24,000 nt of DNA from Neisseriales bacterium (GTDB lineage Bacteria > Pseudomonadota > Gammaproteobacteria > Burkholderiales > UBA11063). Of the stretch, positions 15,756 through 19,394 are shown piece by piece. The DNA is taken from positions 1 to 24,000 of the forward strand of contig SSGX01000003.1 of the NCBI GenBank assembly GCA_008017155.1, written 5' to 3'. Numbering within the stretch: position 1 is the first letter of the stretch; every line of letters starts with the position of its first letter. The notes under the pieces are model-generated. The model saw nothing but the letters and a program-made list of their open reading frames with translations. It was not told the origin of the DNA and did not search any database. Position numbers and translations under genes: made by a program.

Positions 15756-15825
15756 CTACTTTGTCAATAAATCCTAGCGAGGGTTTGGGGGCGGCGATGA
15801 GCCCCCAAGGGGTAAATTATAGTTA
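15756..15825 (+). repeat. 70-bp repeat copy A with a GC hairpin (partner at 19326-19394)
   Basis: 'ctactttgtcaataaatcctagcgagggtttgggggcggcgatgagcccccaaggggtaaattatagtta'. The hairpin is ttgggggc (15785-15792) paired with gcccccaa (15801-15808), with loop ggcgatga. Confidence 0.8.
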
Positions 15826-16264
15826 CTCCTAATTTTTTGTTATAAAAAAAATCTGCCTAATTGACTGTTAAGTTTAAGGATTTAACTGTTCTTTTTGAGG
15901 AACATATTACAATCAAGTATCAAGGAAAAATTTATATTTTTGATGACTATGCTGATCTTGTTAAAAGGTTTGATAAAGAAGTTACGGTTTTGAAAAAATA
16001 TAGACATTTTGATTGATTTGAACAAATATTGATTTGTACATTTGTTTATATTAACATTTACTAACAATCAGAATTTTAATTACTCTTTATCCATATATAT
16101 TAAGGAAGGAGTGCCTTCCCTGTCTGCAACTAAATAGGTTGGTCCTTCAAAAGGACTAACCTATTTATTTTCCGCCACCCATCCCAGCGGAAAGCCTTCC
16201 GCAGCGCCTTCTGGGGCAGCCTTGTGGGCTGCAACTAATCCGGATGTCCCCGGATGATTCTATT

Positions 16265-16628
16265 CATATTTATTTTCGCATAACAAGCGTAATCCTGCAT
16301 TTAATCGATTGAAACATAGCATTAATCAACTATCAAGGGTAAAGTGCACAAAGCCAAAAAATACGGCTTGGCAGATATTCAAGAAAAATAGCCAGATTTT
16401 TAGATCTGGCTATTTTTGTGCCTGCGCTAAAAAACTTTTTAATGATTTTTACCCAAAGGGAACCCAAAAATCAAAAAACTTTTTTATATTTTTTGTCTTT
16501 GCCCTTGATTGTTGCAACCATCCAAGTATCTCTAATGTCCTGCTATCGCCGGACATAAGAGCTACTAAGAGGTTAATTGCTATGTTGTCAATACGGCATG
16601 CAGGATTAGCTCTGCGAAAAAAAATATA
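16265..16628. promoter_or_regulatory. Long imperfect inverted repeat; candidate Frpo/ssi-like single-strand DNA promoter
   Basis: Hand-aligned complementary blocks:
- ttttcgca 16273-16280 with tgcgaaaa 16613-16620
- taatcctgcat 16290-16300 with atgcaggatta 16598-16608
- cgattgaaacatagcattaa 16306-16325 with ttaattgctatgttgtcaatacg 16573-16595
- caactatcaaggg 16327-16339 with cccttgattgttg 16502-16514

There is a perfect 14-bp sub-hairpin in the interior, nearer the left arm (16384-16397 with 16404-16417). Confidence 0.35.
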
Positions 16629-16821
16629 GTGGGAGGTTTTAATGCCGCTGGCAGTAAGGGGATTATCCCCTTAACCCAAATAGTGGGACTATCTGCACTC
16701 CCTTCGTTCGTAAAGTAAGAGTTCTTTAACAAGTTGGATTATTTAGGTGAATACGCGAGATTAACCGGGGGCGTACCGACTTGGATTATTATTTAAAAAT
16801 GCTTTTATGAAAGGTTTAATA

Positions 16822-16980
16822 ATGAAAGCAAAAGATATAGCCTTAACAGTTGCTTTAGCTGCAATGGGCTTTAGTGTTTTAGGGGCTTTCTTTGATGTTG
16901 TATCAGCAAAGGAAGCAGTTTTGGTGTTAGCGGCAGTTGGGCTACCGCTAACGGTACTTAACAAACTACACTTGATTTAA
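16822..16980 (+). CDS. Small hydrophobic protein (52 aa), not in the supplied ORF track
   Basis: My own translation is MKAKDIALTVALAAMGFSVLGAFFDVVSAKEAVLVLAAVGLPLTVLNKLHLI*. The RBS-like 'aaagg' lies 7 nt upstream. A strong hairpin terminator follows. Confidence 0.35.
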   Translation: MKAKDIALTVALAAMGFSVLGAFFDVVSAKEAVLVLAAVGLPLTVLNKLHLI

Positions 16981-16987
16981 TGTAGTA

Positions 16988-17017
16988 GCAGTGCTAATTG
17001 TAGCACTGCCTTATTTT
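16988..17017 (+). terminator. Hairpin plus T-rich tail (terminator or attenuator) between the small ORF and the J-domain gene
   Basis: Stem gcagtgcta (16988-16996) pairs with tagcactgc (17001-17009) around loop attg, followed by cttatttt. Confidence 0.5.
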
Positions 17018-17031
17018 AAAAGGCAAACATA

Positions 17032-17550
17032 ATGGAAAATAATAAATTACAAAATGCAATCGCGGTTTTTGAATTACAAAATGGGCAATATTGTTTAGAT
17101 GATGTTAAGGCTATTTATCGTAAATTAGCTAGTGCTAATCATCCTGATAAAGGCGGAAATACTGAAACAATGCAGATAATTAACACTGCATTTGCTGAAT
17201 TATGCAAGTTCTTTGAATCTGGCAATGCCACCTTAGATATTAACGAAGATGGCAACGAAGAAGCCAAGCAGTTTAATTTTAGCTTCATTAGTGAGCTAAA
17301 AACTATGCACGGTGTAAAAATTGAAGTTTGCGGTTATTGGGTATGGTTGACTGGTGATACTTATTCACACCACGAAAAAATCAAGGCTTTAGGGTTTAAA
17401 TTCTCAGGGGCTAAAAAAGCGTGGTACTGGTCGCCAACAATAAACCAGTCAACTTATCGCCGAGGTAGTAAATCGTTGAAAAATATCCGCAAGGAATACG
17501 GCAGCCGGATAATCGAAACCGAGGGGCAAAAAGCGCTAACAGCGCATTAA
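17032..17550 (+). CDS. J-domain (DnaJ N-terminal domain) protein with an uncharacterised Trp-rich C-terminal domain
   Basis: 'LDDVKAIYRKLASANHPDKGGNTETMQIINTAFAEL' has helix II, the HPD tripeptide and helix III of a J domain. The C-terminal 'VCGYWVWLTGDTYSHHEKIKALGFKFSGAKKAWYW' is not a DnaJ Zn-finger or CTD. Confidence 0.75.
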   Translation: MENNKLQNAIAVFELQNGQYCLDDVKAIYRKLASANHPDKGGNTETMQIINTAFAELCKFFESGNATLDINEDGNEEAKQFNFSFISELKTMHGVKIEVCGYWVWLTGDTYSHHEKIKALGFKFSGAKKAWYWSPTINQSTYRRGSKSLKNIRKEYGSRIIETEGQKALTAH

Positions 17551-17554
17551 TAAC

Positions 17555-17580
17555 AGCGGGCAATTGCCCGCTAATTTTTA
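17555..17580 (+). terminator. Hairpin plus T-tail after the J-domain gene
   Basis: The 18-nt palindrome agcgggcaattgcccgct (17555-17572) is followed by aattttta. Confidence 0.5.
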
Positions 17581-17606
17581 TTACAAATCATTTAAGGCAG
17601 TAAAAA

Positions 17607-19205
17607 ATGCAAACAAATAAAATAGTTGAAACACTCAAGCAGGAAAATATGGATTTTGAATTTTATCCGACCACGGACGAAATAATAAACGCCATCCGGC
17701 AAAATATGCCGGAATATGGCGGATCTATACTCGATATTGGGGCAGGTAATGGCGTTACCTTGCAAAAACTTACTAGCGGGAAACATTCAGACCGCTGGAC
17801 ACGTTACGCAATCGAAAAAAATCCCATGCTCAAAAGTTTAATTAGCACCGATACTTTAGTAATCGGCGCGGATTTTATGGAAAACACCCTGTTTGATAAA
17901 AAACTGGACGTGATTTTTTGTAATCCCCCATACTCGGATTATTCGGATTGGTGCTTTAAGATTATAGCCGAGGCTAACGCCAAGCATATTTTTTTGGTAA
18001 TACCTGAACGATGGGCAAACGTGCAGAAATTGCAGGACATCATCAAGCAGCGGGGCTATACTGTTAGCTCTCTTGGTTGTTTTGATTTTCTTAATGCCGA
18101 ACGGGCAGCACGTTGCAAAGTTGAAGTAATCTACCTCAAGGCAGACCAAGATTATAAAATGAAAGATTTTTTTGATGTTGAGTTAGAAAAATTCTTCAAA
18201 TTTAATGAGCCGGAATATGAGCATAGTTTCACATTTAAGGAGAAGATGGACGAGAAAAAACAGGCGTTTACCGAGTCAATCAATAATCGCAAGCTGGTTT
18301 GCGGTGGTGATTACGTGCAAGCGATTACCGCACTATATCACGAGGAAGAGCAGCGGATTTATGCCACACTGCGCGGGCTTAGCGAGATAGACAGCTCACT
18401 GCTTGAAGCACTTAATATCGAACTAGGCAAAATTAAAACCTTTATTAAGGACAAATTGCGCGGGCTTGGTTCTAAGTATTGGCGCGAAGTAATTACCAAG
18501 ATGCAGCCAATCGCTAAACGCTTGACTGAGCGCAATCAAAAAGCGCTGTTTAATGCGGTATCTGATGCAAATATGAGCTTTAATGCTGCAAATATCTATA
18601 ACGTCGTAGAGTGGGCTATTAAAACAGCTACGCAGGTAATCGAGCAGCAAACGCTTGATGTTTACGAGGAACTAATCAGCGAGGCTAATTGTACTAAGTA
18701 CCAATCCAACAAAACTATTTTTGTGGGTAATAATTTTGAAACTAAGACCCCCAGCAAATTAAATTTGCGCCTTGTCCTCGAACGCCACGGCGGGATTAAT
18801 TCCGACCGCTGGCAGAGTTCATATTATCCCAAAAATTTAAGCGAGCGCGGGCATATAATGCTGGCAGATTTATTTGTTATCGCTAATAATTTTGGGTTTG
18901 AAATTGATAGCCGAGAAAGTTATTCTCGACATTGGCAATCAGGCGTAAAGCAAGAATTTCTAGCAACTCGCAACGGTGAGAAAGTCACATTAATGACCGT
19001 TAGGGCTTTTTATAATGGTAACTTGCATATTAAATTAAACAAAGAATTTAATCACAAGTTGAACGTAATCAAAGGCAAATATGAGGGCTGGATTCACTCG
19101 GTTGATGATGTTGTAAACGAGTTTGAGGTTAGCGAGATCGAAGCCAAGCAACTATTTGAAGAATTGCCAAAATTGATGGTAAATATTGCTGGGTTATTAA
19201 ACTAA
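17607..19205 (+). CDS. Orphan N6-adenine DNA methyltransferase (N-terminal MTase domain plus a roughly 330-aa C-terminal extension)
   Basis: Motif I is 'ILDIGAGNGV' and motif IV is 'FCNPPYSDY' (NPPY), in the order I then IV. No restriction endonuclease, specificity subunit or helicase gene is adjacent. The C-terminal extension reminds me of DUF4942-type leading-region methylases, but I have not verified this. Confidence 0.8.
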   Translation: MQTNKIVETLKQENMDFEFYPTTDEIINAIRQNMPEYGGSILDIGAGNGVTLQKLTSGKHSDRWTRYAIEKNPMLKSLISTDTLVIGADFMENTLFDKKLDVIFCNPPYSDYSDWCFKIIAEANAKHIFLVIPERWANVQKLQDIIKQRGYTVSSLGCFDFLNAERAARCKVEVIYLKADQDYKMKDFFDVELEKFFKFNEPEYEHSFTFKEKMDEKKQAFTESINNRKLVCGGDYVQAITALYHEEEQRIYATLRGLSEIDSSLLEALNIELGKIKTFIKDKLRGLGSKYWREVITKMQPIAKRLTERNQKALFNAVSDANMSFNAANIYNVVEWAIKTATQVIEQQTLDVYEELISEANCTKYQSNKTIFVGNNFETKTPSKLNLRLVLERHGGINSDRWQSSYYPKNLSERGHIMLADLFVIANNFGFEIDSRESYSRHWQSGVKQEFLATRNGEKVTLMTVRAFYNGNLHIKLNKEFNHKLNVIKGKYEGWIHSVDDVVNEFEVSEIEAKQLFEELPKLMVNIAGLLN

Positions 19206-19207
19206 AC

Positions 19208-19242
19208 AAAAGCATAGCGGGCAAAATGCCCGCTATGCTTTT
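19208..19242 (+). terminator. Strong intrinsic terminator after the methyltransferase gene
   Basis: 'aaaagcatagcgggca aaa tgcccgctatgctttt' forms a perfect stem of at least 12 bp with a T-run. Confidence 0.8.
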
Positions 19243-19325
19243 CAGCTAACAGTGGCTAATAAAATACAATCATAAGTAATGGCAAGTATAAATTTCATAA
19301 ATGGGATGGAAACCCGATTAGAAGC

Positions 19326-19394
19326 CTACTTTGTCAATAAATCCTAGCGGGGTGTGGGGGCGGCGATGAGCCCCCACGGGGTAAAGTAAGGTTA
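19326..19394 (+). repeat. Repeat copy B (partner of 15756-15825)
   Basis: 'ctactttgtcaataaatcctagcggggtgtgggggcggcgatgagcccccacggggtaaagtaaggtta'. The hairpin is gtgggggc (19354-19361) paired with gcccccac (19370-19377), with the same loop ggcgatga. Confidence 0.8.

Follow-up and report, generated by a model that had tools for sequence, protein, structure and literature searches.

Two direct repeats of about 70 bp lie 3.57 kb apart (start to start) in the window, by which we mean the whole stretch of 24,000 nucleotides analysed here, the first 24 kb of the 29.9-kb contig SSGX01000003.1 of a Neisseriales bacterium, which resembles an F-type conjugative plasmid. The repeats enclose a J-domain gene and a methylase gene, and the question raised by this locus is whether they are the ends of an acquired cassette, copies of a dispersed repeat, or an element with a role of its own on the plasmid. 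Our answer is that they are very probably paralogues, two copies of a structured element of ~55–65 nt that is widespread on plasmids, and not cassette ends. As to what the element does, we tentatively lean towards a single-stranded DNA (ssDNA) signal on the strand that codes for the replication protein (rep) and the relaxase, resembling the ssiA signal and read by a host enzyme such as DnaG.

The repeats and the family to which they belong

Copies A (15756–15825) and B (19326–19394) are both on the + strand and share ~91% identity, their 70/69-nt alignment containing 6 substitutions and one indel. Alignment and BLAST agree with an earlier interpretation made from the letters alone (the sequence-only reading), which had placed near-identical repeats of ~70 bp in the same orientation here and had proposed that their copies be counted in the host genome by BLAST. 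The search of the whole 2.47-Mb genome (63 contigs, 81% complete) returned two copies only, at E 1e-30 and 1e-21, both on this plasmid contig; neither BLAST nor the covariance model found a third copy in the genome, the best other match of the model scoring 14 bits (Table 1 gives the scores of A and B). Copy A lies 135 nt past the traW stop codon, at the same site as the single copy of G014:C5, L047 and L062 (G, C and L designate genomes, contigs and loci of our comparison), and copy B lies 120 nt past the methylase gene.

The stems of A and B differ by one compensatory pair, T-A to G-C, around the identical loop GGCGATGA, exactly as the sequence-only reading described. Single-sequence folding energies are marginal (z from −1.4 to −2.5, as RNA or DNA), so that the case for selection from the window alone is that one compensatory pair. 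An outer stem around the hairpin, hinted at by the fold of copy B, is not kept among low-GC copies.

Covariation over the homologues shows that the hairpin is under selection, much more strongly than could be seen from the window. When 48 distinct homologues are aligned on the covariance model, 90.9% of the cells are paired and changes have occurred on both sides in 7 of the 8 pairs; the covariation score was reached by none of 500 shuffles, and partners slid out of register pair in only 40–59%.

The layout of the family is a conserved single-stranded box, (Y)CTTKS-N2-4-AAAWATCCTAGCGGGG(T), followed by a stem and then a loop. ATCCT is the best-conserved part of the box in all sub-families. The stem, G-rich on one arm and C-rich on the other, is 6–14 bp long and free in sequence yet always complementary, and the loop is a conserved GGYRATGA (8 nt), or AGACA or GCGAA in sister sub-families. 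Four other genomes of the same genus (low-GC metagenome-assembled genomes, MAGs, labelled Burkholderiales or 'uncultured Neisseria') carry 1–4 clear copies each, with a sharp 5′ edge at (C)TACTTTGTCAA and an end just past the hairpin; two further genomes of the genus have weak partial matches. When genome contigs were scanned with the low-GC 5′ half, only the same-genus matches were real, the others having no hairpin, with ~17 chance matches expected. A pattern scan of metagenomes with AAATCCTAGC-N6-14-GCGGCRATGAGC gave 33 loci, mostly on high-GC contigs, in which box (GAAAATCCTAGCGG) and loop (GGCAATGA) do not vary and the stems are entirely different yet complementary (GCGAGGGC/GCCCTCGC, GCAGGGGC/GCCCCTGC, TTTTAGGGC/GCCCTAAAA; 30 distinct stems). 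Locus L052, which matched by chance within a gene for pyruvate dehydrogenase E1, was left out. A sequence scan of viral contigs gave no match.

The element has apparently not been described before. Rfam returned no match at the gathering threshold for the window, and none that was relevant at E ≤ 5 for the region or at E ≤ 1 for five high-GC loci. Literature searches with the strings AATCCTAGCGG and GGCAATGAGCC led to unrelated papers only, and the literature on RIME repeats and ssi signals was found without this motif.

Taken together, the metagenome scan, PLSDB BLAST and the covariance model place the family on plasmid contigs of alpha-, beta- and gammaproteobacteria, at locus GC contents of 0.30–0.64. 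Its neighbours in metagenomes are ParA, RepC, helix-turn-helix replication proteins, NikA/MobC, serine resolvases and type IV coupling proteins (T4CP). In the complete plasmids of PLSDB the element is intergenic and nearly always unannotated; carriers are Methylomagnum pRS11DPr7, Methylorubrum pB146-1 and pB146-2, Methylobacterium CBMB27-p3 and a 70-kb plasmid of Defluviicoccus, and complete carrier plasmids also occur in Ancylobacter and Xanthobacter. A sister form, ATATCCTCGGGGGT-GTGGGGGC-AGACA-GCCCCCAC-GGGGTA, is present in 64 plasmid records from Shinella, Mesorhizobium, Agrobacterium, Rhizobium, Paracoccus, Cereibacter, Leisingera and other genera. A backbone that recurs among the carriers consists of parA-parG-repA, a distance of 0.5–2 kb, the element, a small open reading frame (ORF) or T4CP gene, and mobQ/mobA. 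There are 1–4 copies per plasmid, and a single one in most carriers.

Strong family members are confined to plasmids, and none was matched among 150 other genomes sampled from the phylum. Weak matches (24–33 bits) in eight genomes correspond to related repeats, AAAAT..TTGCGGGG(G)T followed by a GC hairpin with the loop GATCATC and a second hairpin; G166 has 9 copies, two of them in tandem (C121:9606 and 9673), and G130 has 5 near-identical copies of ~100 nt. These multi-copy repeats are possibly distant chromosomal relatives of the plasmid element.

Orientation and a candidate priming signal

In ~12 plasmid lineages with relaxases of the MOBF, MOBQ and MOBP types, the + strand of the element carries the coding sequence of the relaxase, and usually that of rep too. 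Among low-GC MOBF plasmids this rule is followed by the window, G014:C5 (3 copies) and G016:C102 (2 copies); it is also followed in Methylomagnum, the Shinella/Mesorhizobium group, Methylorubrum, the NikA-linked metagenome groups and one Defluviicoccus copy, and in Neorhizobium, Pseudosulfitobacter, Agrobacterium MWF001, Rhizobium X9, Ancylobacter and Xanthobacter. Two genes of the opposite strand, for an S26 peptidase and a phospholipase D (PLD) nuclease, flank an intact copy in G014:C5 and G016:C102; L061 and L074 have the same arrangement at the homologous site. Copies among opposite-strand S26-peptidase, PLD-nuclease and VirB4 genes score 61–68 bits, and those of G014:C5 and G016:C102, the wrong way round for their neighbours, are still co-oriented with traI of the same contig. 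GC skew on the element strand is +0.07 to +0.20 where the genes are co-oriented and −0.02 to −0.04 where they are opposed; the data are few, and the pattern fits a replication-linked component aligned with the element.

For a priming signal one looks for a covarying hairpin with an invariant box, plasmid contexts and an orientation rule, and all three were found. We favour a role in ssDNA because of the restriction to plasmids, the placement near rep and the origin of transfer (oriT), the orientation at the level of the replicon, 'wrong-way' copies included, and the inverted pairs described below. From this we infer, tentatively, that the folded strand would be DNA rather than RNA and that a primase would start synthesis of the complementary strand at the element. 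The + strand, which codes for rep and the relaxase, would fold as ssDNA; in the window this strand is G-rich, which would make it the lagging-strand template for a fork leaving the RepA end. The 5′ flank would be specifically recognised, and the hairpin, followed by a short 3′ tail, would keep SSB off. In the tail GGGGTA of the window the T is the fifth base past the stem, the position of the start site T32 in ssiA, where priming starts 5 nt past the stem (PMC8567376). Host DnaG would be the most likely primase because in the small carrier plasmids no primase gene is annotated. A priming role would account for copies between backbone modules, 0.5–2 kb downstream of repA and near oriT or the leading region.

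The proposed signal resembles ssiA/ssiB of the IncQ plasmid RSF1010, and more loosely the G4-type 'G-sites', in being a short (40–60 nt), strand-specific ssDNA element on plasmids in which a GC hairpin stands between a specifically recognised, single-stranded 5′ flank and a short 3′ tail, with an orientation tied to replication and not to transcription, and with the possibility of an inverted pair on complementary strands near the origin. Inverted pairs next to rep genes in Shinella and Defluviicoccus recall ssiA and ssiB on complementary strands (PMC8567376). Unlike ssiA/ssiB, with which it has no sequence similarity, the element has a conserved loop, and its priming is only proposed. ssiA/ssiB are described as unique to IncQ-type plasmids and require the plasmid primase RepB′, whereas this element is carried by F-type, MobQ-type and other plasmids in which no primase gene is annotated. 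With ssDNA promoters of the Frpo/ssi type the element shares a leading-region neighbourhood and a presumed action as a folded single strand; the known ones are long hairpins (>100 nt) with imperfect pairing, in which −35 and −10 boxes are re-formed (PMC12672017), and an ssDNA promoter was rejected as a candidate because the stem here has 8 bp and no promoter hexamers. A promoter in the box was likewise rejected, as the candidate hexamers of the reverse strand are spaced by anything from 12 to 18 nt, depending on the copy.

Several observations weigh against a priming signal. The orientation rule has exceptions in Shinella copy 2, Defluviicoccus copy 1 and Rhizobium leguminosarum pRLb1. The first two each lie ~0.4 kb downstream of an opposite-strand rep gene and form an inverted pair with a rule-following copy, and pRLb1 has a single copy ~0.5 kb downstream of an opposite-strand repA; a degenerate copy beside an IS3 transposase (L060) also breaks the rule. 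The ~12 lineages are not independent, as the small alphaproteobacterial plasmids share a homologous backbone, and the orientation of genes is confounded with that of rep and relaxase. The tail GGGGTA is kept only in the low-GC and Shinella-type sub-families, some megaplasmid copies stand among metabolic genes at a distance from rep and mob, and the counts of G-U and A-C in the stems (6 vs 3) discriminate neither between the two strands nor between RNA and DNA as the folded form. To these are added the terminators, the boxA motifs, the stop codon within one copy and the positions of the chromosomal relatives, which are considered in the next section.

More tentatively still, we extend the proposal to a pan-proteobacterial, plasmid-specific ssDNA signal that would recruit a conserved host enzyme, most plausibly DnaG, across diverse plasmids. 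Such a signal would serve F-type, MobQ/MobP and repA/repC replicons in hosts of ~31–66% GC, and synthesis of the complementary or lagging strand would start at defined points beside the replication and transfer modules. If so, priming signals outside enterobacterial and IncQ plasmids would have in it their first broadly conserved example, and, being present in at least three proteobacterial classes, it would be a sequence marker for plasmid backbones in metagenomes. It would also give a handle on second-strand synthesis of broad-host-range and mobilisable plasmids in new hosts, and a simple cis-element for testing plasmid establishment and copy-number control. The rival readings, too, leave a strongly covarying and apparently unannotated motif that deserves a curated model.

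Alternative explanations

The most serious alternative, in our view only a little less probable than a priming signal, is that the + strand is transcribed together with the upstream genes and that box and hairpin act in the mRNA as a punctuation element, before a terminator or between cistrons. The proposal of the sequence-only reading that the copies delimit a transcription unit thus stays a serious rival. The element could be a site of processing, protect the message from 3′ exonucleases, or, like boxB, partner an adjacent boxA in a leader of the nut/rrn type. Terminators, boxA, an ORF end inside the element and relatives placed after stop codons make up the pattern of an RNA element at the 3′ ends of genes. 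With relaxed symmetric criteria and four-way controls, a terminator-like hairpin with a T-run was found downstream, no more than 100 nt away and on the same strand as the element, for 13 of 42 copies, compared with 3, 2 and 2 in the controls (Fisher p ~0.003–0.01, the copies not being independent); stricter criteria gave 3/43. Both window copies follow co-oriented genes, and the gap to the upstream gene is 25 nt (to the model match) in L077, 98 nt past a methyltransferase gene in Xanthobacter, 85 nt in Cereibacter pB and 53 nt in Paracoccus pAMI4. In G016:C102 the last six codons and the TAA stop of a 203-aa ORF sit in the 5′ part of the element; the homologue of this ORF in L047 has a different end with no element after it. 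The possible multi-copy distant relatives in some alphaproteobacterial chromosomes lie 7–48 nt past the stop codon of a co-oriented gene in 9 of ~14 cases.

In G014:C5, L047 and L062 the motif GTTCTTTAACAAG, which contains a boxA core of the host genus, begins 10 nt past the element hairpin. The 11-nt core TCTTTAACAAG is identical to the boxA of the rrn leaders (…AGATCTTTAACAAGAT…) in all 4 rRNA operons of a complete genome of the same genus, G029; no 16S gene is assembled in the window's own MAG. In the window the 10-mer GTAAAGTAAG directly before boxA (16710–16719) is also the tail of copy B (19381–19390). Joined, these two stretches resemble the uninterrupted unit of G014, L047 and L062. 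An element-plus-boxA unit at the head of the leading-region genes thus seems to be the ancestral state, split or permuted in the window plasmid, and the match to rrn boxA suggests Nus-factor antitermination of the plasmid leading-region transcript. The order boxB-then-boxA in three related plasmids and a conserved loop on a variable stem are like nut and rrn leaders.

Against a role in mRNA, most copies, those of other sub-families and both window copies included, have no boxA beside the hairpin, no N-like protein was identified, and some copies are antisense to the local operon. The upstream neighbour is on the other strand in ~40% of plasmid copies, and an intact element is kept inside an opposite-strand type IV secretion system operon at the same site in at least 5 plasmids. 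Confinement of the strong members to plasmids is unexpected for a general mRNA element. An upstream promoter is not conserved, so the element is not a free-standing small RNA gene, and a small RNA with a plasmid target was rejected, the complementary target GCTAGGAT being found at no ribosome-binding site of the contig. The hairpin itself is not an intrinsic terminator, as it is followed by GGGGTA or other non-T sequence, and the T-tract terminators are separate second hairpins.

A selfish or recombinogenic repeat of the REP/MITE type (repetitive extragenic palindromic sequence/miniature inverted-repeat transposable element), spread by a trans-acting enzyme that acts on the folded strand, would make the two copies two insertions and any role secondary; we think this unlikely. 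Both edges of the element are sharp with unrelated flanks, it is present or absent among orthologous regions downstream of traW, and the native C-terminus of one G016 ORF has been replaced by it. Exchange between copies is indicated by the traW-side copy of G014:C5, whose 98% identity is with copy B of the window and not with copy A. The related repeats reach 5–9 near-identical copies per genome, sometimes in tandem (G130, G166), and an inverted pair flanks a HicAB module in Shinella. Like REP sequences and their clusters (BIMEs), the element is a short intergenic hairpin with a conserved 5′ flank, often just past genes, in direct, inverted or tandem copies with lineage-specific yet complementary stems. 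REPs, however, occur in tens to hundreds of chromosomal copies with a RAYT gene; here there are 1–4 copies per plasmid, only two in this genome, and box and loop are the same across host classes. Terminal inverted repeats were not seen in the copy alignments, nor a target duplication at the Shinella, L060 and Defluviicoccus pairs. The Y1/RAYT (PF01797) genes of G000, G014, G166 and G130 have no element in their flanks (best match 10.5 bits, six loci), and no recombinase is common to all carrier plasmids. Invariance of box and loop in hosts of GC 0.30–0.64, together with the orientation rule, points to a function with a conserved partner. Of the REP/MITE-like element suggested by the sequence-only reading, the dispersal over plasmids and the distant multi-copy relatives therefore hold, while the two copies here, the lack of terminal repeats and duplications and the lack of element-flanked Y1/RAYT genes speak against it.

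The sequence-only reading also proposed that the repeats are attachment or recombination sites at the boundaries of an acquired cassette, so that recombination between them would insert or excise the 3.5-kb module. This now appears very improbable. It is true that the repeats enclose the GC-richest 3.5 kb of the window, and that in the low-GC sub-group L056, L068 and L069 an integrase gene lies ~350 nt from the element; no tRNA was found near these integrase-adjacent copies, hence no attachment site of the tRNA type. The GC content of the interval is 0.382 against a window mean of 0.340 (standard deviation 0.021), ~2 standard deviations above it and in the top 10 of 410 sliding windows, which partly bears out the earlier description of the interval as GC-richer; but traU is as rich (0.394), the first 275 nt past copy A have a GC content of 0.229, and the GC step and the repeats do not coincide.

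Comparison of related plasmids does not support a cassette. The expectation was that an empty site would retain a single copy. In G008 and G006, traW is followed within 0.1–0.4 kb by CACACCTACCTACCT.AAGGTA, the motif found at ~21026 in the window, with neither repeat nor cargo, so the empty site carries no copy at all. In G014:C5, L047 and L062 one copy follows traW, the cargo is different and a second copy is absent. In G016:C102 other genes take the place of the J-domain/methylase block, with breakpoints at 17045 and 19268 of the window, away from the repeats; the 60-nt upstream flank of copy B is shared with the G016:C102 copy (96% identity over 19268–19388). The edges of the element are, on this comparison, junctions of past rearrangement, but the pair bounds no mobile unit. 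No integrase, transposase or recombinase turned up when the larger ORFs of the 29.9-kb contig were scanned with Pfam, as had been noted for the window from its sequence (the search for IntI covered this contig only), and most carrier plasmids have a single copy. Integron attC sites share with the element a position 3′ of ORFs and a folded single strand, and one copy overlaps an ORF stop codon. Both copies and their flanks nevertheless have no attC cores, neither the 3′ GTTRRRY (GTTAATA and GTTACTC fail) nor the 5′ RYYYAAC, and unlike attC there are no R″/R′ cores, no long imperfect palindrome with extrahelical bases, no array and no integrase on the contig. The J-domain/methylase module would thus be a variable leading-region segment with a boxA antitermination signal and not a discrete cassette bounded by attachment sites.

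An orphan oriT nick site, mobilised by a co-resident MOBP relaxase, is equally hard to credit: the box AAAWATCCTAG|C may resemble the nick core of the MOBP type, (A/T)ATCCTG|C, which occurs in RP4, R64 and T-DNA borders, ATCCT is the best-conserved part of the box, mobilisation genes are nearby in many plasmids and the Methylomagnum element lies within a ~400-nt region upstream of mobC, but the hairpin is 3′ of the box with nothing conserved upstream, whereas HUH origins have their inverted repeat 5′ of the nick, nicking of the + strand would send the relaxase genes first, the reverse of the usual order, and 2–4 copies per plasmid would split transfer into segments. MOBF and MOBQ carriers also have oriT-like sequences of their own elsewhere (the window relaxase is of the TrwC/TraI, MOBF, type). 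In MobQ plasmids a separate conserved sequence like a nick region, TAATAGCGCACTTATACATTGC…, stands directly upstream of mobQ, so the element is not their cognate nick site.

The sequence TAATRGCGCACTTATACATTG-N6-8-CAACATAGGTGC upstream of mobQ in Shinella, Mesorhizobium and Methylorubrum (L078 8318–8530, L079 2972–3220, L081 7462–7630, L082 7451–7618) is probably the cognate MOBQ oriT.

Other features of the window

The gene order from the start of the contig is a RepA-like gene and a PspA cluster, TraC/TraG-like genes, TraU, TrbC, DsbC/thioredoxin, SLT, TraW and the interval between the copies, then DUF29, a TrbI-like ORF, two small ORFs and TraD, the coupling protein; the remainder of the contig codes for a TrwC/TraI (MOBF) relaxase-helicase, SSB, Fic and ParA. 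Almost all genes are on the + strand. The contig ends share no overlap, so that circularity of the 29.9-kb contig is not indicated.

Table 1. Positions of the two copies and of the features around them in the window
Feature	Position	Strand	Sequence, basis or remark
Element copy A	15756–15815	+	Sequence inspection, BLAST, covariance model (69 bits)
Copy A, 5′ extension			CTACTTTGTCAAT; low-GC-family type
Copy A, box	15769–15778	+	AAATCCTAGC, then linker GAGGGT
Copy A, hairpin	Arms 15785–15792/15801–15808; loop 15793–15800	+	TTGGGGGC/GCCCCCAA; loop GGCGATGA; tail GGGGTAA
Terminator-like second hairpin	15808–15839	+	AGGGGTAA…TTACTCCT, then AATTTTTTG; 5′ arm is the tail of copy A
Interval between copies, putative leading-region-type module	15826–19325	+	Begins with an AT-rich spacer
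Structured non-coding DNA	16101–16760
boxA-like antitermination motif	16721–16733	+	GTTCTTTAACAAG; ~900 nt past copy A, ahead of small leading-region ORF
boxA-like motif in relatives	L015 ~19185; L047 ~2891; L062 ~10908	Element's strand	GTTCTTTAACAAG
Small ORF	16813–16980
Weak DnaJ-like ORF	17032–17550
Methyltransferase + DUF4942 gene	17607–19205		Relatives of the gene are plasmid-borne
Terminator	19208–19242
ORF remnant, last ~21 codons	19268–19340	+	…SNGKYKFHKWDGNPIRSLLCQ*; translation comparison; 203-aa ORF intact in G016:C102 (L012:2341–2952)
Element copy B	19326–19390	+	Sequence inspection, BLAST, covariance model (72 bits)
Copy B, box	19339–19348	+	AAATCCTAGC
Copy B, hairpin	Arms 19354–19361/19370–19377; loop 19362–19369	+	GTGGGGGC/GCCCCCAC; loop GGCGATGA; tail GGGGTAAAGTAAG
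Sigma-70-like near-consensus promoter	19413–19442	+	TTGCAA-18-TATAAT; consensus match only

Its orientation relative to the relaxase, together with the putative Frpo-like hairpin and candidate oriT of the sequence-only reading, would make the interval the leading-region side of oriT. Its gene content differs between relatives: in G016:C102 a Macro-domain ORF and other small ORFs (L012, 1191–1661) occupy the slot of the J-domain and methylase genes of the window, and the swapped contents fit interchangeable early-entry cargo. The sigma-70-like promoter lies 23 nt past copy B, ahead of the DUF29 gene (19484–19921).

Between traW and copy A there is a separate conserved non-coding element, CTACTTCGTCCCCGTGTTGTATCCCTACAGAGCACGGCCAC (15664–15703), just past traW, which is kept in G014:C5 and holds a CCGTG…CACGG hairpin. 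At ~21024–21050, upstream of the block of accessory ORFs, traD and traI, the motif CACACC(G/T)ACCTACCT-N2-AGGTAG contains the inverted repeat CTACCT/AGGTAG and is found directly past traW in G008:C18 and G006:C34; it is a candidate operator or oriT component, adjoining the candidate oriT mentioned above. The terminator hairpin AATCTGCCAAACGGGCAGATTTTTT occurs twice in the window, at 7449–7473 after the ORF ending at 7361 and at 20014–20038 after the DUF29 gene, and is again present in G016:C102.

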